Sequence record: NC_052656.1
Length of the DNA: 64,000 bases
Origin: Escherichia phage anhysbys
Reading direction: 5' to 3' (one strand)
Shown piece after piece: positions 4,500 to 54,512 of this stretch; position 1 is the stretch's first letter; the number at the start of each line of letters is the position of its first letter. The translations under genes were made by a program, and so were the position numbers. A model generated the notes under the pieces. It ran no database searches. It saw nothing but the letters and a program-made list of their open reading frames with translations, and was not told the DNA's origin.

Positions 4500-6740
4500 T
4501 CACATCTTGCAAGCTTCACAACCACCATCAGAATCTTCTTGTGCTAAAGAGTCTGCTGATTTTGTTCTACTATTAAGGTAATACAACGACTTACCACCCA
4601 GTCTAGCAAAATTCAGAATAAACTGCATCTCAGCTTTCACTGATAAACGTCCACCTACCAATTTAGAATAATCTAGCCAAGAATCACAAGAAATTCCTTG
4701 GTCCGTAAACTTGGTAAAGATACCATACATTTCTGCAAGGTCTTTAGCAGGAGTGTCCCAGGCGGACTGGTAGAACATTTTCAGTTTTTCGTAGTCTGGA
4801 ACAATAAATAATACACTACCTTTCTGACTTTGTTTATACATAATAGTATCACGAACAGGATACAGAGAGTTAGTAGTATTGCTTACCAAACTGCTGGACT
4901 CATTAGGTGCGATAGCAGCCAAGACACTGTTACGGATACCACCTTGTTCAATGATTTCAGCACGTAAGCCTTCCCAATCCATTTTAAGATCAAAATTACC
5001 GATACTATCTACTGTTTTAGCATAAGTGTCAATTGGTAGCCAACCTTGAGGCCATTTGGTCTTATCGATCCATTCCGCATTACCTTTTTCCTTAGCCAGA
5101 CGCAGAGAGGCTTTTGCCAACCAAAAGTAATGACGTTCTGCAAGTTCATGCATTAATTTTTTAGCATAAGCATCTGAATAATTTACAAAATTACTTGCCA
5201 AGTAATGTGCTAAGTTTGTAATACCTACACCAATAGATCTACGTGCTTTAGCAGTTATTTCGTTATGTTTAAATGGATAATCCATTGTTTCAATAACGTT
5301 GTCAATTGTCAATACAGTGTAGTATGCAACATCCTCATATTCTTCAGGTAAGACACGACCAGCAACAATAGAAGATAAGAAGCATAAAGCCAATTCTTGA
5401 TCTTCTGTATTCTCACCAGTAAAGAGATCCGGCATACTGTGGAAAGCTTTAGTTGGTAAGAAGATCTCTTGACACAGGTTTGATTGATACACCGTATCCA
5501 GGAAAGGTGTATGGTTGTTAACGTTGTCCGCAAAGAACATGTAAATACGTCCTGTTTCTGCACGTTGAACAATAATCTCTGTCAGAAGATCACGAGCCTT
5601 AACAAATTTTTTCTTAATGCGACGACGGCTTACTTTGTCATAAACTGCATCAAACTCTTCTTCACTTTTATACAAAGCTTCATAAAGTTCAGGAGCATCA
5701 TCACAACTAACTAACATCCAATCTTCGTTTTTTGCTGCTCGACGCAAGAACGAACGGTTAACAACAATAGAATAATCCAGTTTGTCTACTCGTTTATCTA
5801 TAGGTGTTGTTGGATTCTTCAGTCGAATCAGATCGTCGAAGTCTGGTTCAAGTATGGTAAAGGTAACTGTAGCACTACCTCCACGGCTTGCTTGCTTCGA
5901 AGCTCCAACACTATCTTCCATCCATTTCAGATACGGAAGAAGACCACCATGAATAATACGATTATTCTTAACACCTTGACCTGTGGCACGAGTTTGAAGA
6001 TTAACACCAATACCTGCGTTATTCAACGTATACTCATGAGCTAAGTAATTAGCAATGGCTAAAGACTCTGCTGTGTCATCTGCACGGAATAAACAACAAG
6101 ACGCACTTCCTTTGATTGGAGTTCGTAGAGTTGTCAGATATGGTGATGGCAGATTAATCTTAAGATCGCTAACATAAGTATACAGTTTTTTAATATCTTC
6201 TATACGGCGTTCTTTTGGTTGGATCTCCATAACCTTCATTGCGATACCAATGAAAAGAAACTGTGGAGACTCATGCACCACATCGTTTACTGCATCTCGG
6301 ATAAGATATTTATCCACCATCTGACGTAAAACAGAATAGCCATAAGTTAGATTTTTATTATGCTTTACAATCTTACCAATTTCTTTGATCTCTTCATCAG
6401 TATAATCCATTTTAGCCCAATGTCCACGTTCTACCATATCATGATAAAAGGTATTCAGTGAAGGGATACTGTGGTATCCCCCATGAGCCTGTTTGTAAAT
6501 CATACCCAGAAGAAGTCTTCCTGCCATATCACTGTAAGCTTGTGTTTTCTTGTCAATACACGCTGCAATCATTGCTTTATGCAGATCACGTGTAGACACA
6601 CCGTCATAACACCGCTTCACAGCTTCTAATTCAATTTCAGACCAGTTTAGTTTACCTGCTGCAAATTCAGACCACTTGCGAAGTTTTTCTGGATTAAACT
6701 CCTCTATCTTACCGTTAGATTTAGTTACAAAACGAATCAA
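4500..6740 (-). CDS. nrdA: ribonucleotide reductase class Ia large subunit (NrdA)
   Basis: 746 aa; active-site region SNLCQEI, C-terminal Cys pair (CEAC), size matches NrdA. Confidence 0.9.
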   Translation of the reverse strand: MIRFVTKSNGKIEEFNPEKLRKWSEFAAGKLNWSEIELEAVKRCYDGVSTRDLHKAMIAACIDKKTQAYSDMAGRLLLGMIYKQAHGGYHSIPSLNTFYHDMVERGHWAKMDYTDEEIKEIGKIVKHNKNLTYGYSVLRQMVDKYLIRDAVNDVVHESPQFLFIGIAMKVMEIQPKERRIEDIKKLYTYVSDLKINLPSPYLTTLRTPIKGSASCCLFRADDTAESLAIANYLAHEYTLNNAGIGVNLQTRATGQGVKNNRIIHGGLLPYLKWMEDSVGASKQASRGGSATVTFTILEPDFDDLIRLKNPTTPIDKRVDKLDYSIVVNRSFLRRAAKNEDWMLVSCDDAPELYEALYKSEEEFDAVYDKVSRRRIKKKFVKARDLLTEIIVQRAETGRIYMFFADNVNNHTPFLDTVYQSNLCQEIFLPTKAFHSMPDLFTGENTEDQELALCFLSSIVAGRVLPEEYEDVAYYTVLTIDNVIETMDYPFKHNEITAKARRSIGVGITNLAHYLASNFVNYSDAYAKKLMHELAERHYFWLAKASLRLAKEKGNAEWIDKTKWPQGWLPIDTYAKTVDSIGNFDLKMDWEGLRAEIIEQGGIRNSVLAAIAPNESSSLVSNTTNSLYPVRDTIMYKQSQKGSVLFIVPDYEKLKMFYQSAWDTPAKDLAEMYGIFTKFTDQGISCDSWLDYSKLVGGRLSVKAEMQFILNFARLGGKSLYYLNSRTKSADSLAQEDSDGGCEACKM

Positions 6741-6756
6741 CTTCTCCTCCCTATTA

Positions 6757-6999
6757 TTAATGCATATTCAAAACATCTACATCATAACCGAACTTCATTT
6801 CATTAAAAAGTCCATTAGCATATAGAAAACCTTCAAAATGAGTTATGTCATCAAACCCTTTTGCTTTTGCTCGACGGTCTGCTTCTTGTCTTTTAGGAGA
6901 TAAACGTTTTGAAGTGTCTAGAATTACAGTTACATTACAACCAACAGTTTCATCAAAATAGACTTCGATTTCACAGCCTTCATATTTATTATCAGTCAT
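6757..6999 (-). CDS. hypothetical protein
   Basis: ORF 6757-7011; start placed at the second ATG (6999), which has a GAGGG Shine-Dalgarno. Confidence 0.45.
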   Translation of the reverse strand: MTDNKYEGCEIEVYFDETVGCNVTVILDTSKRLSPKRQEADRRAKAKGFDDITHFEGFLYANGLFNEMKFGYDVDVLNMH

Positions 7000-7007
7000 T
7001 GTCCCTC

Positions 7008-7418
7008 TCATTGATTAGTATCATCTGCTTTCGCAGGATCATAAGAGTTACCGAAATCATCCATCTTAATATGTGACGCACCCCAACCTGTAAATTCTTC
7101 ATCACCAAAATGAAAAATATCGTTTTCTTGATAGATTCGTTTAAAACCACAATTAGGTGAAACAGGGAAAGTGAAAAGCGTTGTATTTGCAAACACTACT
7201 CGCTTATCGTTATTGCTTCGGATATTCACATTACGCTCAACAGAATAGTGTGAATCTTCAGCCATACCCAGCATTACAAGCGACGCTCTAATAACAGCAT
7301 TTTGTTTCTCGTGTGGGATATTGCCATTGTGTTTATTTGATTCTAGTTTCCAGATAGGGGTAGACATTACAGTAGACATGCTTACGGTAGCCCAAGTTGT
7401 AGTATTTACTAATGACAT
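7008..7418 (-). CDS. hypothetical protein
   Basis: ORF-track start at 7451 is a GTG inside a hairpin; ATG at 7418 has AAGGAG 5 nt upstream. Confidence 0.45.
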   Translation of the reverse strand: MSLVNTTTWATVSMSTVMSTPIWKLESNKHNGNIPHEKQNAVIRASLVMLGMAEDSHYSVERNVNIRSNNDKRVVFANTTLFTFPVSPNCGFKRIYQENDIFHFGDEEFTGWGASHIKMDDFGNSYDPAKADDTNQ

Positions 7419-7470
7419 ATTTTCTCCTTCATTTTGAATGGGAGGACTCACCTCCTCCCAGTATTGTGCT

Positions 7471-7500
7471 ATATTATACTAAAACTAATACTAAAGTCAA
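7471..7500 (-). promoter_or_regulatory. sigma70-like promoter (TTGACT-16-TATAAT) on minus strand
   Basis: reverse complement of 7495-7500 is TTGACT and of 7473-7478 is TATAAT; followed by 5'UTR hairpin GGGAGGA/TCCTCCC. Confidence 0.5.
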
Positions 7501-7516
7501 TAATTATTTAAACAGA

Positions 7517-8515
7517 TCACCATTTAGTATGATTTGTTAAAAGTTGACGATGTTGAATCCAGCCTTTGAAATTGCCAGACCAAAACTTACCATTACGATC
7601 TACATGGGTAATACCTGGTTCCCAAGAGTTAAAATCCCAAGGAGCATTGATAAACAAATCTTCAAAACAGTTCTCCCCATATTGTTCGCATGTTTCTTGC
7701 ATTGGGGTGGCTTGATGTTCAAACGGAGAAGCATGAACCTTGCGCCCAGTCAGCAAACGACCATAGATATCTAAAGCTTTATCTTTAGTTGCATTCAAAC
7801 GACGATAGCTAACCTGTGCACAACACGAAGCTGAAATAGCTTTGGCTTCTTCCAAAGTAAGCACAACAACTTCTCCAGATTCATCTTGAACATAGTATCC
7901 ACCAAAAACAAAATGATCGTCACCTTCTGTGCCAATATTATCATAGAAATGGTCTACATAAGGTGTGTGCCATTGCCCTGGTTTCAGCACTTCTGGTGTA
8001 GATTCTTCATACTCTTTGTGCATCTCTTTAGCCAAAGCTTCGATAGTAGGATCGGCTTCTTTGTCATCACGTAGCCACCAGAAATTTTCATATTCTGTTG
8101 CTGTCAGAACTGTTTTAATTCGTTGGAAAGGTTCCAGAAGACGGTTTGCAACTTGTTTGTGGTACCCTGCCAAAGAGAATTCTTCTGCAAAACGTGCTGC
8201 ACTAAGCGCGGCAAGATCCCACCACTCTTGAGCAGTATAACCTGCATCAATAAGAGCATCATGGTCAACACCTTTGTCCTGCATACCAGGTTGGTTAGCC
8301 CCAAAACGATAAGGACGAGCAGGCTGATTTCGAACCATTTCGATCAGTGTTTTAACAGGTATAGCACGGCTAGAAGCAGCATTACGACTGAACAGGCGGT
8401 GAGTCATCAGTTCTGAATGAATAATACGTGGATATTCAAGTTCGAAAGTTACAATCTCTTTTCCGTCTTCAGTGATGGAATGCGCAATAATACTAGCCGA
8501 AATCTGTTTTGTCAT
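7517..8515 (-). CDS. thyX: flavin-dependent thymidylate synthase-like (ThyX family)
   Basis: 332 aa; THRLFSRNAASSRA matches the ThyX signature RHRx7S (cf. RHRIASYNELSGRY) but with Thr replacing the first Arg. Confidence 0.6.
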   Translation of the reverse strand: MTKQISASIIAHSITEDGKEIVTFELEYPRIIHSELMTHRLFSRNAASSRAIPVKTLIEMVRNQPARPYRFGANQPGMQDKGVDHDALIDAGYTAQEWWDLAALSAARFAEEFSLAGYHKQVANRLLEPFQRIKTVLTATEYENFWWLRDDKEADPTIEALAKEMHKEYEESTPEVLKPGQWHTPYVDHFYDNIGTEGDDHFVFGGYYVQDESGEVVVLTLEEAKAISASCCAQVSYRRLNATKDKALDIYGRLLTGRKVHASPFEHQATPMQETCEQYGENCFEDLFINAPWDFNSWEPGITHVDRNGKFWSGNFKGWIQHRQLLTNHTKW

Positions 8516-41044: not shown

Positions 41045-41067
41045 CCTCGCTTCGGCGGGGTTTTTTC
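41045..41067 (+). terminator. intrinsic terminator
   Basis: CCTCGC-TTCG-GCGGGG followed by TTTTTT. Confidence 0.7.
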
Positions 41068-48026: not shown

Positions 48027-50180
48027 ATGAAACAAGCTATATTTACTGTCACGCGAGACAAGAGAGTAAATGCGAGTTCATTTAACTACACGACTGTTGA
48101 CGGAACAGCAGTCGCTGGTAGAGATTATATTGCAAAATCGGGAACACTTGTGTTCCCTGATGATGCTGATTCTGCTACTATTGTGGTTGAAGTATTTGAA
48201 CGACCAAAGAACTCAATAGATCTTAACTTCTCCCTCCAAGTTTCAGGGATTAGTCAAAATAACATGATGGTTGAAACAACCATCAATTGTATTATAACTA
48301 CTATCCAAGAAAATACTACTCCAATAACTTGGACTACAAAAGACGTTAAAATGTTCTCTCCTATGTATTGGACAATAGATTCTCAAGCAACGGAAAGTTG
48401 TTCTATTGTATCTCATGGAGACTCTTTTACTGCAAGATTTGTAAACAGAACAACAGCAGGTTTGGCAGGGGTTATCTGGAGCACAGTTGACAAATATGAC
48501 CATAAAGGTGTTGGGTATTTGCCTCACACAGATTTAAGTTCAGAGAAACTTTGGTTTAAAATGGAAATTAGTCAAAACATGCCAGGTTTTAAAGAAGAAC
48601 CTTTGGTGCCGACTTTGACTGTAACTCTCCTGGATAAAAGTGTTCATTATGTCAGTTTAGGATTCTACGCTTCAGATATTTCAGAAGATGGTAAAACAGC
48701 CACAATAAAGTTAGATTTTGGTAATATCTTTTCTGGCCCTAATAATGATATTCCTTTGGATATGAGTGCTGTAGATAATATTTTCTTCTCTTTGATTACA
48801 GCAAGGTATGAAGAAATAGAAGAGATTGTACCTATTGCCAGTCAAGAGGCTTGGTTTACTTTCACTCTTCTTGAACCTACTTCTGGTTACAGTATGATGA
48901 AAGTCAGCAACCTTGTCCAGCCTGAACATGATATTCACATGTGCACATCTTATGATGATATGTATAACCTGACTCCAGAGAGAGTTATTTATAATACATA
49001 TGCACTAGGTTATCGTGGAATGATTAACCATTACAACGGAATGTCTCACTATTATGAGTTCTCATGGAACGGAACATCTTGGGCTTTAAATAGATCTGTT
49101 TTCCTGAATCCGGCTACAGAAGCTTGGCTTAACAGTTTCCATTCTATAGCTAATGAAAATGGCTACACAATAATGAACTCTTTGAGTTTTGAGTTGATGA
49201 GCACAGTTTGTCCTGTTGAATGGGTCCAGCATGATTGGAACGATGCTCTTGCAGCAACAGGGTATAAGCCTCCTAGTTACGTGTTGTCTCCAACTATTGA
49301 CGAAGGTATGGAATATTTGCAAAATGTTATTAACAAAATAGCATCTATTTCTCAAGCTAATAACATTCCAGTCGTCATTCAAATTGGTGAACCTTGGTGG
49401 TGGTATAATACAGCAAGTAAAATGCCTTGTATATATGATTACACTACCAAACTGGCATTCAATACAGAAACAGGTTTATTTGCACAAGATGCAGGAACAA
49501 TAGATGATTATAAAACAGGAACGCCGTTTGACGAATACTATGCATTTTTGTCTCGTAAACTAGGATTAAGAGTTACAAAGTTTGCAACAGATACTAGAGC
49601 AACTTACCCAGGAGCCAAGGTAACATTGCTTCCGTTCTTGCCATCAATTATCGGCAACGGTTTGATGGAGAAAGTTAACTTCCCGTCTGATTACTACATT
49701 CCTGAAGCTTTTGATTTTTACTGTTCAGAGTGTTATGACTGGCTTCTGGAAGGTAAGATGATGAAAGCATTTGATGCAATTACTATACCACATGAAAAAT
49801 TAGGTTTTGAATATTCTGATATTCACTACCTTTCAGGTTTTGTTCCAGATGCTACTCTTGCACCTTTGTATGGCTTTGATCCTAAATCAAACTACCGCAC
49901 ATATCTTTGGAAGATGATTATAGGTAACATAGTGTTGAACGCCAATAAGTTTGACGGACTTACACAATATATATGGGCCTATCCTCAAATAATGCATGAT
50001 TCTATCACGGTAGTTAATTCTCAATCCCAAGTTTTCTATATGGGTAACGTGCCTTTGAACGTTTATTTACAGGATATCACTCTTAAACAGGTAAATGTTG
50101 AGATTGCCACCATAAGTGGAATTACATTAGCCACTAAATCTGGAGAAGATTTAGTAACAACACAAAAATTTTATATATAG
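48027..50180 (+). CDS. tail protein with N-terminal Calx-beta domain
   Basis: 717 aa; VTRDKRVNASSFNYTTVDGTAVAGRDYIAKSGTLVFPDDADSATIVVEV matches the Calx-beta consensus. Confidence 0.5.
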   Translation: MKQAIFTVTRDKRVNASSFNYTTVDGTAVAGRDYIAKSGTLVFPDDADSATIVVEVFERPKNSIDLNFSLQVSGISQNNMMVETTINCIITTIQENTTPITWTTKDVKMFSPMYWTIDSQATESCSIVSHGDSFTARFVNRTTAGLAGVIWSTVDKYDHKGVGYLPHTDLSSEKLWFKMEISQNMPGFKEEPLVPTLTVTLLDKSVHYVSLGFYASDISEDGKTATIKLDFGNIFSGPNNDIPLDMSAVDNIFFSLITARYEEIEEIVPIASQEAWFTFTLLEPTSGYSMMKVSNLVQPEHDIHMCTSYDDMYNLTPERVIYNTYALGYRGMINHYNGMSHYYEFSWNGTSWALNRSVFLNPATEAWLNSFHSIANENGYTIMNSLSFELMSTVCPVEWVQHDWNDALAATGYKPPSYVLSPTIDEGMEYLQNVINKIASISQANNIPVVIQIGEPWWWYNTASKMPCIYDYTTKLAFNTETGLFAQDAGTIDDYKTGTPFDEYYAFLSRKLGLRVTKFATDTRATYPGAKVTLLPFLPSIIGNGLMEKVNFPSDYYIPEAFDFYCSECYDWLLEGKMMKAFDAITIPHEKLGFEYSDIHYLSGFVPDATLAPLYGFDPKSNYRTYLWKMIIGNIVLNANKFDGLTQYIWAYPQIMHDSITVVNSQSQVFYMGNVPLNVYLQDITLKQVNVEIATISGITLATKSGEDLVTTQKFYI

Positions 50181-50188
50181 GAGTAAAA

Positions 50189-52264
50189 ATGTCAACTACA
50201 ATTACTAATTTACCCGAAACATCAAAAGTTAATGATTCTGATTACCTGGTTTTAGACCAACCTGATAAGACTGTTAAAAGCACAGTTTCCAACTTTCTTA
50301 CTGACACTGGGGTGGTTTTAGCCACCCAGTTGAAAGATACAGATGGAGCAGATATGATCGGGGTTCCAACAACAGAAACTTCTTTGGGGGAATTGCTTTC
50401 ATCTGATGATATGGCCATCAAATATAGTTATGTCAACCCAACAATCAGTGAAAGGCTTGGGCGTGAAGGGGCGAAGGTTGTTTTGGTCGGCGACAGTCTG
50501 AGCAGTTTCTTCAACATAGATTCTGTAAACACAGCGTCTATCTTTGAGTCTTACCTGCGCCGCAAGATCATGGAATTCAACAGTACGGCGAAGTTCTATA
50601 ACAGAGCCATCGGCGGCAAGCGTTACTATGACTTGGGTAGAAATGAACCGCCTCTTAATGCTCTGAAGAGCGGATACCCTTGGTATACAGACACGTCCAA
50701 GCGTTGGATGACTTACTTGGACGATCTTAAACCAGATGTGATCTTCTTGGCCTTTGGTATGAACGATGGCGCTGGCTGGGACGTGGGTAACTTTCAACAA
50801 GATAACTTCTTCAAGATGATGGAAGAACTTAAGTCCATCAGTTCAAGCCCTGAGTTGGTGTTTTGTACTAATATTCTTCCTTCTACAACACATGTTGATA
50901 CCGCAACAGAAGACCAGCAGCAGGGGCGTGATGCGATGGCTGGCTGGACAAGAAGTTTTGCCAGAAAGGCGGGATATAGCTTCCTTGATCTTCATAGACG
51001 TTTCAAATGCTTACGTGATGGTGTAGACCCGTGCATGGCTAGTTATGCCCGTAAAACCATTCAGAAAGTGGTGTCGCTTCCGTATGTACACACCGCCCAG
51101 TGTGATATGTATTCGGCTCGGGTAATTTTGATCGATCCAGCCGTCGCGACCACAGGTATTAGATTCCAGTTGTCGAAGTATTCTAACAACTTCATGACCT
51201 TGAAATACGATACCACGACATCGCGCTGGATAACGACCGCATATACAGCTTCTTTCTCTTCCGTTGGCATCGCTGATCAGAGTTCTATGCCTGGCCCAGC
51301 CCCGGCTGAGGGAACAGAGATATACTTCACCATGAACGGTGACGTTGTCGTAATAACCATCGGCATCAACACATATCCGGTGTTCAGCCGTAATATTGTG
51401 CGCTTCGGTGGTAAATTCTTCCCTCAAATCGGCGGAACTGGTGATATTCGGATTGACATGATTGAGGGTACACCTATCCCTGTTAAATCAGAGTTGACGG
51501 ATTATGATTGCTACAACACTGACGGCGATGGCGGGAATGGCATCAACCACCCAACAGCCAAAGCGAGTTCCCGAATTTATACTCGCGTTGTTGACGACTG
51601 GTTCAGTATGTTTGCTGGGTCTGTTAGTTCCAGAAAGCAGGTGCTGGACATTGACTTTGTCAACGGCACTGTTGTGGTGAGAAACCCGTATAGCCCAGAA
51701 CTATCTTGTGAAGACAAAATCAGCGCCGCCCTGACTTTTATCAACGGATCACTCGCATACCAACGCGACGCTCAGGGACGTGTCATTGGAGCGGTGTTTG
51801 GGGCTACGAACAGAGCGTATGTTGACCAGGCTTTCTTCAATGCTTATGCGGGGAATTACAGCCAGCTCACATTTGAAGTAGAGTTCGTTGCCCCGAGCGC
51901 CCAGGCATACATCTGCACGTTCGGGGAAAACACCACAAGTGACCGAATCATAGCTCAGGTCACAAGTGATTTACGCCCAAGAATCACGGCAGCCGTGGCA
52001 TCACAAGCCAGCGACCTTTTCGGTTCAGCTTCGTTCCCATTTGTTGCTGGACGGAAATACGCTTTGAAATTCTCTTTAGATTGTGAGAATTCGGTCGCGC
52101 AGATGTGGGGGCAGAACAACTCCGCGCGAGGTAACATCAACGTCACCCCTATAACCGCCATATCTCCGGCGACGCTATCCAAGCTGAAACTTGGTTATGC
52201 GTCAACTGGAACATTTGGTGTAGATGTCGTGGTTTCAAGAATCAGAGTCTGGTTCTCCAACTGA
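50189..52264 (+). CDS. tail fibre/spike with SGNH (GDSL) hydrolase domain (candidate surface-polysaccharide esterase/deacetylase)
   Basis: 691 aa; block I VVLVGDSLSSFF, block III GMNDGAGW; AT-rich N-terminal ~80 codons, GC-rich remainder. Confidence 0.6.
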   Translation: MSTTITNLPETSKVNDSDYLVLDQPDKTVKSTVSNFLTDTGVVLATQLKDTDGADMIGVPTTETSLGELLSSDDMAIKYSYVNPTISERLGREGAKVVLVGDSLSSFFNIDSVNTASIFESYLRRKIMEFNSTAKFYNRAIGGKRYYDLGRNEPPLNALKSGYPWYTDTSKRWMTYLDDLKPDVIFLAFGMNDGAGWDVGNFQQDNFFKMMEELKSISSSPELVFCTNILPSTTHVDTATEDQQQGRDAMAGWTRSFARKAGYSFLDLHRRFKCLRDGVDPCMASYARKTIQKVVSLPYVHTAQCDMYSARVILIDPAVATTGIRFQLSKYSNNFMTLKYDTTTSRWITTAYTASFSSVGIADQSSMPGPAPAEGTEIYFTMNGDVVVITIGINTYPVFSRNIVRFGGKFFPQIGGTGDIRIDMIEGTPIPVKSELTDYDCYNTDGDGGNGINHPTAKASSRIYTRVVDDWFSMFAGSVSSRKQVLDIDFVNGTVVVRNPYSPELSCEDKISAALTFINGSLAYQRDAQGRVIGAVFGATNRAYVDQAFFNAYAGNYSQLTFEVEFVAPSAQAYICTFGENTTSDRIIAQVTSDLRPRITAAVASQASDLFGSASFPFVAGRKYALKFSLDCENSVAQMWGQNNSARGNINVTPITAISPATLSKLKLGYASTGTFGVDVVVSRIRVWFSN

Positions 52265-52276
52265 CGGAGTCTTTAA

Positions 52277-52405
52277 TGAATATTGACATATCTCCTATTC
52301 TTCACACCCTGGTCGCTACCACCCTGCAAGCAATTGCGGGGTTACTCCTGGGAGACTGGGTGATCGGAGCAGTGATGGGTTGTACGTTCTTCGCCGCCCT
52401 TTAAT
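52277..52405 (+). CDS. small hydrophobic peptide (42 aa), GC-rich
   Basis: ATG with GGAG 8 nt upstream; single predicted TM helix; GC-rich codons unlike surrounding phage genes. Confidence 0.3.
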
Positions 52406-52430
52406 TCCTGTCGGCGCTATTGATAGGCAT

Positions 52431-52453
52431 CCCCGCTTCGGCGGGGTGTTTTA
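52431..52453 (+). terminator. intrinsic terminator
   Basis: CCCCGC-TTCG-GCGGGG followed by TGTTTT. Confidence 0.7.
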
Positions 52454-52477
52454 AAACTACAACATGAGGACTAACCC

Positions 52478-52786
52478 ATGAATAAGATGTTCACACAGCC
52501 CACTGGCCCAGTGGCTAAACAGGTTAATAAACAAGGCATTGCCCGTAAGTTTGGTGTTAAACAATCTGAGGTTGTTTACTTCTCAGTTGGTGTGGATTTG
52601 GGTGGGTATAAGGTTATCTATGATAAGGAGACGCAAAGGGCGTATTCCCTACCTGCTGATATTGCCCCAGGTACTACTGCCATTAATCTTAGTGCTGCCG
52701 GAGTATTAGTTCACTCTGCGGGTAATGTGGACCTTGGGGAATTAGCTGCATATCGTGATTTAAAAAGTAATGAGAACGCACTATGA
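52478..52786 (+). CDS. hypothetical protein
   Basis: 102-aa ORF; ATGA overlap with downstream membrane protein gene. Confidence 0.4.
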   Translation: MNKMFTQPTGPVAKQVNKQGIARKFGVKQSEVVYFSVGVDLGGYKVIYDKETQRAYSLPADIAPGTTAINLSAAGVLVHSAGNVDLGELAAYRDLKSNENAL

Positions 52787-53025
52787 GAAAATTTTTAATA
52801 GGTATGTTCTGTACATATCCTGATAATAAAGTCAGTTCTACGAAAGTCTGGAACGCTGTAGGCATGTCGGTTATGACAGGCATGTTTATCTTTTTAGGAA
52901 TAGAAAAAGAAATTCCTGAATGGATGGGTTGGGCTTTTGTTTTCATGATAACTCCTTCTCGCCTCATGAAAAATCTTATTGATTTACGCTGGGGCAGATC
53001 ACAATCTACCAAAGAGGATGACTAA
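52783..53025 (+). CDS. holin-like small membrane protein (two TM segments, charged C-terminus)
   Basis: 80 aa; hydrophobic stretches VWNAVGMSVMTGMFIFLGI and WMGWAFVFMITPS, C-terminus RWGRSQSTKEDD. Confidence 0.4.
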   Translation: MRKFLIGMFCTYPDNKVSSTKVWNAVGMSVMTGMFIFLGIEKEIPEWMGWAFVFMITPSRLMKNLIDLRWGRSQSTKEDD

Positions 53026-54512
53026 TGGACGAATATGGTTTGACAGATGCGGGATTTGTAATCCCGACTTTTGACGATGTTTTAAACAACTACATGACAG
53101 CAGTAAAAAACACATTTGGTGCAGATGCAGCCACTTCGGAAGATACTGTGATCGGACAACTGTTTAGAATAATTGCATACACAGATTACACATTGTGGGA
53201 AGGTATGCAAGGTGTTTATAATACTCAAACACTGGATGGTGCAGAAGGTATTTATCTTGACGAAATCTTTTCTAAACGCGGTTTCTATCGAGCAGGGGCA
53301 GCAGCAAGTACAGGTTATGCCTATGTTAAGAGTAATAACAAAGCAGCTTGGACTTATGAGTTAGGCACGGATATTTACTTCAACTCTGATAGTGATATGA
53401 ACTACTATGTTAGCACACCAACTATGTTGAATGCTAAGATTGCAGCTTATCAAATCTCTCGTGCTAATGCAACTGCTACAGGTGTTCCAAATATTACTTT
53501 TTATGCACAAAGTGCGGTGGATGGGGGACTAAACAGTAAAACACTTGCACCTGGTTCTTCTACATTTATAACCGATCTTGAAACTTTTATCAAGGCGAAT
53601 TTAACAGAAGCTGATCGTAGTCTTGTATTTTCTGATTCAGGTAACTTATCAATTGGTTTTACTTCTTTAACCAGCGATACTCCAGTGGGACTAGTAACTC
53701 CTATCAAATTTTATGCCAGTGTTCCAGTTGGAACCAAATGGAGTGAAATTCCAGTAGTTGCAGCAGAGAAAGGATACAATCCTGTTGGTGTGGAGTCTAT
53801 TACAGGGATATCTTCTACCTTTACAGGTTATCTTGACAGTGGTAACTTTTATTCATTTTCTCCTGGTCGGGATGTTGAGACAGACGCAGAATTCCGCTCT
53901 CGTTTCAATGACAACGTTGATGAAGCTAACGCAGGGACACGAGCAGCTATTGTGAAAGCTCTGTTACTTACAGATGGTGTCACTAAGGTGAAGATTTATG
54001 ATAACCCTACGTTACATGATCAAGAACACGCTCCAGCTATGACTTTCCAGACTATAGTTTATGGTGGCAGTGCAGAAGAAATTGCAAATGTTATCTATAA
54101 AACCAAACCAATCAACACTTTGACACACGGAACAACTAACATAACAGTTACAACAGAAGATGGAGGACAAGAAATTATTCGCTTCTCTCCTGGTGCTTCT
54201 GCTATGTATTCCGTAAAACTTGTTTATCAAACTGTCAACGGAACAACTTTAAGTGGAACAGAAAAACAAAACATCGTAGAAGCTTTACAAAACCTGCAAG
54301 CTTACTTTGAGTTAGGTTCTTCAGTAACGAACGATCAAATCAAAGGTGTTATTTACGCAGCACTTGCTTTTGGACGCTTGACTTCTCTTCGTGTTTATGT
54401 TAAACTTAATACTGAGGATGACAGTAAATATACAGAGAATAATATAATTCCTGCTTATAATGTTGTCCCTTCTTTTGACCTTGATAACATTTCTTACGAG
54501 TATGGAGTGTAA
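53025..54512 (+). CDS. baseplate J-like protein (putative)
   Basis: 495 aa; position and size; weak N-terminal resemblance to baseplate J family. Confidence 0.4.
   Translation: MDEYGLTDAGFVIPTFDDVLNNYMTAVKNTFGADAATSEDTVIGQLFRIIAYTDYTLWEGMQGVYNTQTLDGAEGIYLDEIFSKRGFYRAGAAASTGYAYVKSNNKAAWTYELGTDIYFNSDSDMNYYVSTPTMLNAKIAAYQISRANATATGVPNITFYAQSAVDGGLNSKTLAPGSSTFITDLETFIKANLTEADRSLVFSDSGNLSIGFTSLTSDTPVGLVTPIKFYASVPVGTKWSEIPVVAAEKGYNPVGVESITGISSTFTGYLDSGNFYSFSPGRDVETDAEFRSRFNDNVDEANAGTRAAIVKALLLTDGVTKVKIYDNPTLHDQEHAPAMTFQTIVYGGSAEEIANVIYKTKPINTLTHGTTNITVTTEDGGQEIIRFSPGASAMYSVKLVYQTVNGTTLSGTEKQNIVEALQNLQAYFELGSSVTNDQIKGVIYAALAFGRLTSLRVYVKLNTEDDSKYTENNIIPAYNVVPSFDLDNISYEYGV

Follow-up and report, generated by a model that had tools for sequence, protein, structure and literature searches.

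Does a GC-rich segment within a phage tail-spike gene mark the exchange of a receptor-binding module, and if so, where does the exchanged DNA begin and end? This question is raised by a 64,000-nucleotide stretch of sequence record NC_052656.1 from Escherichia phage anhysbys (hereafter, the window), in which an earlier inspection of the letters alone (hereafter, the sequence-only reading) singled out positions 50450–52453 as richer in guanine and cytosine (GC). The segment covers most of a fiber or spike gene (50189–52264, + strand; 691 amino acids) and a small open reading frame (ORF) of 42 amino acids. The protein products are identical to anhysbys entries YP_009985605.1 and YP_009985606.1, respectively. 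Both genes are labeled 'hypothetical protein' in the deposited genome; the UniRef entry already notes an SGNH domain. We consider it highly probable that the spike gene carries an imported O-acetylesterase module and that a small gene brought in along with it was later truncated. An N-terminal anchor joined to an exchangeable enzymatic distal module is the textbook arrangement of phage receptor-binding proteins. Anhysbys is a Phapecoctavirus with a genome of 149,335 bp and 39.1% GC; its source was Danish wastewater, and its isolation host was E. coli MG1655 (PMC7552041).

Composition of the spike gene

The GC content of 50450–52453 is 49.0%, as compared to a mean of 39.0% (standard deviation 2.0, maximum 44.0) for 1153 other 2004-nucleotide segments of the window (z = 4.96). 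Third-position GC is 0.519 in codons 56–691 of the spike gene, and averages 0.297 (standard deviation 0.048, maximum 0.413) in the 41 other ORFs of at least 150 amino acids (z = 4.65). The sequence-only reading was therefore right in calling this segment GC-richer, and both its GC and its codon usage differ strongly from those of the rest of the window. The excess is concentrated at third codon positions and is thus synonymous, with first- and second-position GC only mildly raised (0.48 and 0.46, respectively). In a sliding profile, GC climbs from 0.32–0.36 to 0.45–0.51 over 50300–50600 and is back at ~0.40 beyond 52550. In a likelihood scan for two breakpoints, the 5' step fell at 50446. The spike gene also contains two antisense ORFs, of 133 and 138 amino acids, which we took to be by-products of the raised GC.

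Breakpoints of the foreign tract

The 5' breakpoint is evident from comparison with 79 Stephanstirmvirinae relatives (Phapecoctavirus and Justusliebigvirus records), which match the window from 50100 at 96–100% nucleotide identity. These matches end at 50317–50361, mostly at 50353, and past ~55 codons the 79 relatives carry unrelated spikes. The first 55 codons (50189–50353, + strand; GC 0.376) are common to all alleles of this slot and constitute the resident anchor, that is, a virion-attachment N-terminus shared by receptor-binding proteins of the same phage group that have unrelated distal domains. When five sequences were aligned, the window did not differ from iGC_PHA_EC001 up to 50353, and from 50351 it followed a metagenomic contig, L003 (ENA ERZ13616481 NODE_187), without mismatch. 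Because the window switches at this point from the phapecoctavirus type to L003, the anchor is 55 codons in length instead of the ~80 proposed earlier, with similarity to phapecoctaviruses ending at 50353–50361 (codon 55–58). The sole ~12 nucleotides that are similar in both parental types form a crossover patch, GATGGAGCAGAT (50342–50353, + strand), which encodes D-G-A-D.

Codons 56–691 and the stop codon (50354–52264, + strand) make up the imported part of the spike gene, which is distinguished by its identity to L003 and its foreign third-position GC. Its first portion, 50354–50449 (codons 56–87), is foreign by similarity, yet has a GC content of just 39.6%, which accounts for the earlier placement of the boundary near 50450. 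On the 3' side, the tract ends within 52405–52581 (+ strand), which comprises the spacer and the first 27–35 codons of a gene encoding a 102-amino acid protein (52478–52786). Over this stretch, 52536 is the only mismatch between the window and L003, and beyond 52581 identity drops to ~80–90%. From 52556 onward, the window is equal to phage nieznany, which places the 3' crossover in codons 27–35 of the 102-amino acid gene, at 52556–52581. For most phapecoctaviruses, similarity resumes at 52526. The recombination boundaries thus differ from the GC boundaries. The segment first identified by composition is indeed foreign, but the whole imported tract (~2.2 kb, 48.2% GC) is wider, extending from ~50351 to 52556–52581, beyond the terminator and into the next gene. 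A break in composition, discordant identities, and defined breakpoints at 50351–50353 and 52556–52581 together identify the locus as a recombinational mosaic.

A compositional accident of the amino acid sequence or a chimera of the assembly would instead produce a GC-rich stretch that is not a biological mosaic. Nothing beyond its prior speaks for this idea. First- and second-position GC are raised only mildly, and the excess sits at synonymous third positions. An assembly chimera is contradicted by two independent metagenomic contigs (151,118 and 141,977 bp) that encode the same 691-amino acid chimera, and by the position of both junctions, which are in frame and at conserved motifs. This explanation is already refuted, and we give it practically no credence.

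Exact-pattern scans of IMG/VR returned no matches to the chimeric 5' junction and none to the deletion joint described below. Within the tract, which is otherwise 96–100% identical to L003, a patch at 50700–51180 has an identity of only 86–91%. The drop suggests secondary mosaicism or gene conversion involving a third allele, and falls in the latter half of the SGNH domain and the first part of the insert.

Closest copy and distribution of the module

The copy of the module in L003 (10523–12580) is 96.6% identical to the window over 50342–52399, as compared to 78–80% identity in the flanking baseplate and tail genes. The backbone of L003 is 94–96% identical to phages phiWec181, phiWec186, phiWec188, and phiWec190, for which the genus "Wecvirus" within the subfamily Stephanstirmvirinae has been proposed (PMC12695924). 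In L003, the module is borne on an 814-amino acid protein that has a TSP1/gp66-type N-terminal domain. Other homologs, with identities of 42–74%, are joined to N-termini of PF03906 (T7 type), PF12571 (P2 type), and PF18668 (TSP1/gp66 type). Some of these are encoded on contigs of ~40, 72, and 150 kb, others on chromosomes of E. coli and Aeromonas; in E. coli strain I4, one stands at the fiber H position of a P2-like prophage. In this prophage and in a Kayfunavirus, the GC content of the module is 0.51–0.53, which fits a module family that is at home in genomes of ~50% GC.

The donor search suggested in the earlier inspection yielded this metagenomic copy as the closest, and no isolate. Among 50,697 phage records, which did not include that of anhysbys itself, the nucleotide-level search identified only Kayfunavirus BDX03P1, whose 67% match is confined to the SGNH part, and no isolate donor. 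Only seven of these records matched at the protein level. Isolates matching over most of the module were Kayfunavirus BDX03P1 (52% amino acid identity) and four Pectobacterium N4-like records (27%), and Escherichia phage BP9 had a partial match (15%). Matches in complete E. coli genomes were limited to three of 5,426, all prophage fibers; as these matches have 67–68% identity, none of the genomes is a recent donor. The module is therefore rare among isolate phage genomes, yet present on contigs and chromosomes representing varied phage types.

The most plausible course of events is that a ~2.2-kb cassette, beginning at codon 56 and ending near codon 30 of the following gene, would have been acquired by recombination with a related co-infecting phage, leaving the first 55 codons as the resident virion-attachment anchor. 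The closest known copy of this cassette is the one in metagenomic phages resembling "Wecvirus," with the family (~49–53% GC) also represented in P2-like prophages and in T7-like and N4-like phages. The earlier proposal of a horizontally exchanged, receptor-modifying SGNH esterase module on a resident N-terminal anchor is supported by the shared anchor of the relatives, by the discordant identities, and by the presence of the module on other anchors.

A further allele bears on the direction of this exchange. A metagenomic phapecoctavirus contig of 151,655 bp, L004, has in the same slot (6001–8088) an SGNH spike of 695 amino acids, which is 62% identical in protein sequence and ~55–70% in nucleotide sequence, and which has a GC content of 0.43–0.45. 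The L004 allele is either an older one that has drifted toward phage composition or an independent acquisition. It could alternatively be taken to mean that the module is ancestral to the Phapecoctavirus slot and was exported from there to Wecvirus-like and other phages, with anhysbys having kept the old allele. The GC excess would then be due to constraint or to slow drift toward genome composition, and not to recent import. The intermediate GC and matching length of the L004 spike agree with this idea, as do the other 691-amino acid versions on 151- and 142-kb contigs and the foreign composition of the module in L003 as well (0.49, versus 0.44 for the L003 backbone). However, a third-position GC of 0.52 versus 0.30 would be hard to maintain over a long residence. 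In addition, the tract includes the L003-type spacer and first ~30 downstream codons, with the phapecoctavirus allele taking over only from 52556–52581, and the 96.6% identity across genera, against a backbone of ~80%, indicates that the last exchange was recent, whichever its direction. We consider an ancestral module unlikely, and import into the slot remains our preferred explanation.

Domain organization of the spike

An AlphaFold model of the spike monomer (mean predicted local distance difference test score (pLDDT) 83.5, predicted template modeling score 0.79) is composed of an α/β part (residues 90–278), an all-β part (279–432), a loop and a long helix (438–477), and a second all-β part (485–691). 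Residues 1–38 have pLDDT below 50, as expected of a segment that needs partner proteins.

Residues 90–278 (50456–51022, + strand) correspond to the N-terminal part of an SGNH esterase and contain block I (G101-D102-S103-L104), block II (G143), and block III (G190-x-N192-D193). The motifs quoted in the sequence-only reading, VVLVGDSLSS and GMNDGAGW, are present and belong to blocks I and III, respectively. Residues 97–274 match PF13472 (Lipase_GDSL_2) with 47.3 bits (gathering cutoff 32.9) and PF00657 with 27.6 bits (cutoff 23.6), both matches stopping before block V. These scores, along with the GDS(L) of block I, the oxyanion-hole residues of blocks II and III, and the three-layer α/β/α fold, place the protein in the SGNH superfamily.

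Block V was assigned to G448-G-N-G-I-N-H454-P-T, which together with the C-terminal helix (457–477) is encoded by 51494–51628 (+ strand). The assignment is based on conservation, on the corresponding motif in gp66 of phage Possum (see below), and on a spliced profile match. For the last of these, residues 279–436 were removed, such that residues 86–278 were joined to 437–482. The match to PF13472 was thereby extended from positions 2–154 to 2–174 of 178 (48.8 to 54.5 bits), and that to PF00657 from 1–173 to 1–205 of 208 (30.6 to 36.7 bits). Profile positions 156–174 of 178 and 174–205 of 208 were matched only when the block V segment was included. As splicing out the insert extends both Pfam matches to the profile ends, the esterase fold is predicted to be split by a β-sandwich of ~157 residues just ahead of H454, in block V. 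The GDSL/SGNH catalytic domain recognized earlier thus stands, but in two pieces, with the histidine ~350 residues past the serine S103. An alternative candidate for block V, D267-x-H269, was rejected; Possum has asparagine at position 269, the Pfam profiles stop before block V there, and GGNGINHP fits.

The insert (residues 279–435; 51023–51493, + strand) lies between strand β5 and block V, and is modeled as all-β at pLDDT 85–96 over residues 279–432. At the C-terminus, a jelly roll of the LamG or concanavalin A type (residues 483–691; 51635–52261, + strand) is presumed to be a glycan-binding or distal domain. In structure searches, the β domains match LamG/LNS, concanavalin A-like lectin, and CBM40 folds, as well as the receptor-binding domains of clostridial neurotoxins.

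G101, D102, S103, G143, G190, N192, D267, D280, N450, and N453 are invariant in all 34 homologs, and H454 is conserved in 33 of these. The catalytic residues among these are kept even in homologs having as little as 17–29% identity. The family to which the spike belongs is phrog_17220 (E = 8e-157), annotated as 'unknown function.'

Predicted enzymatic function

The best guide to function is gp66 of the Pectobacterium phage Possum (Cbunavirus, Schitoviridae), which removes the 2-O-acetyl group from rhamnose of the host O-polysaccharide, as shown by nuclear magnetic resonance (PMC9569702). Possum gp66 is homologous to the anhysbys spike in sequence (27% identity over residues 86–468, E = 3e-27, BLASTP) and, self-matches aside, ranks first in a Foldseek structure search of BFVD (E = 1e-29 over 596 aligned columns). 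The order of parts is the same in the two proteins, with SGNH blocks I–III followed by a β-sandwich and then a block V of sequence GGNGINHP(T/S)A, and Possum gp66 is likewise a virion-attached receptor-binding protein. Based on this homology to a member with demonstrated deacetylase activity and on the conserved catalytic residues, the anhysbys spike is most likely a polysaccharide O-acetylesterase that serves as a receptor-binding protein.

In the mode of action we propose, the spike, presumably a trimer, would bind O-acetylated O-antigen or capsule through the β-sandwich inserted beside the active-site loop and through the lectin-like C-terminal jelly roll. It would then strip acetyl groups without cleaving the chain and commit the virion to hosts of that serotype. 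Possum gp66 provides one precedent for such action, and gp63.1 of phage G7C (PDB 4QNL), an SGNH esterase tailspike that deacetylates O-antigen, another.

It may also be that the SGNH domain is catalytically dead, with the protein serving simply as a lectin-type adhesin, or as a structural fiber, that has kept an esterase fold. In keeping with this, the aspartate of block V is missing (N450-G-I-N-H454), a 157-residue insertion interrupts the catalytic domain, and the C-terminal 60% of the protein is dominated by two lectin-like β-sandwiches. On the other hand, S103, G143, N192, and H454 are (near-)invariant even across such divergent homologs, and Possum gp66 deacetylates its host O-polysaccharide with the same split architecture and the same GGNGINHP motif. 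SGNH esterases that operate with a Ser-His dyad also exist, for example in carbohydrate esterase family 2. A dead enzyme therefore appears quite unlikely, and an active O-acetylesterase is the better supported reading.

Several points weigh against the account given here of an imported O-acetylesterase module. The block V aspartate of the DxxH motif is replaced in N450-G-I-N453-H454-P-T, which has no acid at that position, and the enzyme may thus use a dyad or a noncanonical acid instead of a triad. The nearest assayed homolog, Possum gp66, is 27% identical, and G7C gp63.1 has no similarity detectable by BLASTP in its catalytic region. When an alignment of the family was compared with G7C gp63.1 by hhalign, only the TSP N-terminal domain of other family members was aligned. 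The isolation host of anhysbys, E. coli K-12, presumably makes no O-antigen, so the spike would not be needed on this host. As to origin, the Wecvirus-like lineage is not the ultimate source, because in L003, too, the module exceeds the backbone in GC, and the last transfer may have run in either direction. Lastly, the 5' crossover occurred with only ~12 nucleotides of similarity, and the real parent may therefore have been another phapecoctavirus that was already chimeric.

A truncated gene downstream of the spike

The 42-amino acid hydrophobic ORF noted earlier does exist, at 52276–52404 (+ strand) and not at 52277–52405, but it is not an intact gene. Alignment with L003 identifies it as the internally deleted remnant of a gene for a 98-amino acid protein with two transmembrane segments (phrog_1443). 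Residues 1–41 match the 98-amino acid ORF of L003 codon for codon, with one substitution, and 168 nucleotides (56 codons, in frame) are missing. L003 has the 9-nucleotide direct repeat TCGCCGCCC twice, flanking the 168 nucleotides that are absent from the window. The single remaining copy (52391–52399, + strand) marks the deletion joint, and the two BLAST segments overlap exactly there. The intact protein has hydrophobic segments at residues 3–41 and 76–98, the second of which is deleted in the short form. Accordingly, the 42-amino acid ORF aligns with phrog_1443 only over positions 1–39 of 97 (E = 9e-11), as compared to positions 1–94 of 97 (E = 1e-40) for the intact protein, and is a truncated derivative and not a full-length member with two hydrophobic segments.

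Genes of phrog_1443 are located directly downstream of tail-fiber or spike genes in Wecvirus-like contigs and in many lambdoid coliphages. Weaker, partial matches to this family occur in Aeromonas and Halomonas phages. Intact copies of 97–98 amino acids follow the 814-amino acid spike in L003 (12457–12753) and in a second contig, L008 (5923–6216). An exact copy of the 98-amino acid protein is encoded on a 151,118-bp contig, and a 691-amino acid version of the spike is likewise found on a 151,118-bp contig. This suggests that the chimera first had the intact 98-amino acid gene and that anhysbys lost the segment later. A slippage deletion of 168 nucleotides between the 9-nucleotide direct repeats, occurring after import, would have cut the co-transferred gene to the 42-amino acid ORF. 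Other truncated variants of phrog_1443, 64 amino acids in length, are found, and the gene thus appears from these sequences to be dispensable.

Predicted terminator and leader

The imported tract also contains a predicted intrinsic (rho-independent) terminator (52431–52452, + strand). A pattern scan identified the hairpin CCCCGC-TTCG-GCGGGG, with six G-C pairs and a four-nucleotide TTCG loop, followed by TGTTTT. The hairpin (52431–52446) and its T-tract agree with the terminator consensus; the element had earlier been placed at 52431–52453, and the hairpin is as described, but the T-tract ends at ~52452. The predicted fold of the whole 73-nucleotide spacer contains this hairpin but has a stability that does not exceed that of shuffled sequence (z = −0.94). 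The terminator and spacer are identical to those of L003 except for a one-nucleotide gap right before the stem. A near-copy of the hairpin occurs elsewhere in the window, at 41045–41066. No RNA family of Rfam was found in 49800–53200, and a promoter scan gave no more hits than in shuffled sequence.

The hairpin and leader (52417–52480) are 92–98% identical in Gamaleyavirus AN24P2, in Klebsiella N4-like phages, and in ~150-kb phages, all of which have unrelated spikes upstream. The similarity in these phages often begins exactly at the hairpin (52428–52431), and the 16-nucleotide repeats annotated on both sides of G7C gp63.1 are the same hairpin. These observations raise a broader possibility, which we put forward tentatively and consider less likely than not. 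The moving unit would be a cassette composed of the distal module of the spike, the phrog_1443 gene, and the UUCG-loop terminator and leader, with the terminator and leader acting as a portable homology handle between phage families. The module itself would then represent a structurally undescribed family of split SGNH deacetylases that lack the canonical aspartate (phrog_17220).

The spike slot and neighboring genes

The gene order of the window agrees with that of phAPEC8-type phages. In relatives, a 958-amino acid tail protein and a 717-amino acid protein are followed by the variable spike, a 102-amino acid 'tail protein,' an 80-amino acid membrane protein, and a 495-amino acid baseplate wedge. 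The anhysbys spike gene is in the hypervariable tail-spike slot, at the position of phi92 gene 143. Other alleles of this slot include endosialidases and pectate-lyase-type spikes, among others. That the slot holds differing putative tailspikes among phages was previously reported (PMC7552041).

The 717-amino acid protein encoded just 5' of the spike (48027–50180) has Calx-beta, NCTSP_N, and TIM-barrel domains (TIM barrel, E = 9e-79). The NCTSP_N and TIM-barrel Pfam families are named for 'non-contractile tail sheath protein,' though the tail of this phage is contractile. The 102-amino acid protein encoded 3' of the spike is a free-standing homolog of the N-terminal ~95 residues of Kuttervirus and Gamaleyavirus tailspikes, and matches positions 328–420 of phrog_7992 (E = 2e-53). 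Its DNA is 76–84% identical to CBA120 orf210 and also matches the 5' end of the gene for G7C gp63.1. This protein may be an adaptor, or an anchor module detached from its spike. The gene for the 80-amino acid membrane protein (52783–53025; phrog_1322, 'moron' category, E = 2e-27) and the 102-amino acid gene overlap at the stop codon of the latter, and the former is kept across phapecoctaviruses. Among the related records, MG065650.1 ('Campylobacter phage B15') agrees with E. coli phapecoctaviruses, and OR584014.1 ('Pseudomonas phage PsgM04F') with Wecvirus-type phages, at ~96–98% identity; the host labels of both records look doubtful.

Comparison with known systems

Receptor-binding module swaps set phage host range and guide therapeutic phage engineering. 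The locus described here is a clean but ordinary case of such a swap, resolved to the nucleotide, in the phAPEC8/phi92 group, whose members have several different receptor-binding fibers. It pins the start of the exchangeable part to codon 55, at the D-G-A-D motif, and indicates that an exchange can take along a small downstream gene, a terminator, and the start of the following gene. New here are the exact breakpoints, the joint transfer of the small gene, the terminator, and the first codons of the gene that follows, the identification of the 42-amino acid ORF as a remnant, the predicted split domain with its noncanonical block V, and the link of phrog_17220, a family of 'unknown function,' to the experimentally characterized deacetylase Possum gp66. 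Current understanding is unchanged by these findings, which refine the annotation of the deposited genome.

Within its own phage group, the spike is most readily compared to the endosialidase-type spikes of phi92 (gp143, EndoN92) and phAPEC8. These occupy the same position, between the 717-amino acid NCTSP-like gene and the 102-amino acid gene, and have the same N-terminal anchor, with phi92 being 95.8% identical in nucleotide sequence over 50102–50340 of the window (first ~50 codons). However, the distal domain in the phi92 and phAPEC8 types is an endosialidase, that is, a depolymerase and not a deacetylase (PF12217–12219 in P0090).

Deacetylase spikes of the SGNH type are already established in phages G7C, Possum, and PP99, and have lately been described as common among Klebsiella prophage receptor-binding proteins (PMC9569702, PMC13123978). 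In the Klebsiella case, these are SGNH esterase tail fibers, common in temperate phages, two of which were confirmed to be active (PMC13123978). The likeness is by description, the Klebsiella proteins having other hosts and capsule as substrate, while homologs of the anhysbys module sit in P2-like E. coli prophages. Possum gp66 differs from the anhysbys spike in having an N-terminal part of ~400 residues that includes a TSP-attachment domain, and in its distal regions, as no alignment extends past residue 468 of the anhysbys protein. Possum is also a podovirus that infects Pectobacterium versatile, whereas anhysbys is a myovirus, and activity is proven for Possum gp66 only.

G7C gp63.1 has GDS at residue 274 and a putative block V, DTTH, at 470, as would fit a domain that is not interrupted and that has the canonical DxxH motif. 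Its anchor differs from that of the anhysbys spike; its N-terminus is homologous to the 102-amino acid protein encoded directly downstream of this spike, and its gene is bounded by the same CCCCGCTTCGGCGGGG hairpin as is found 3' of the spike. Accessory β-sandwiches also occur in cellular carbohydrate O-acetylesterases, as seen in Roseburia CEX (6hfz) and Neisseria Ape1 (4k3u and 8gld), which are not virion proteins. The accessory domain is inserted near block I in Ape1 and is terminal in CEX, whereas in the anhysbys spike it is predicted to lie between strand β5 and block V.

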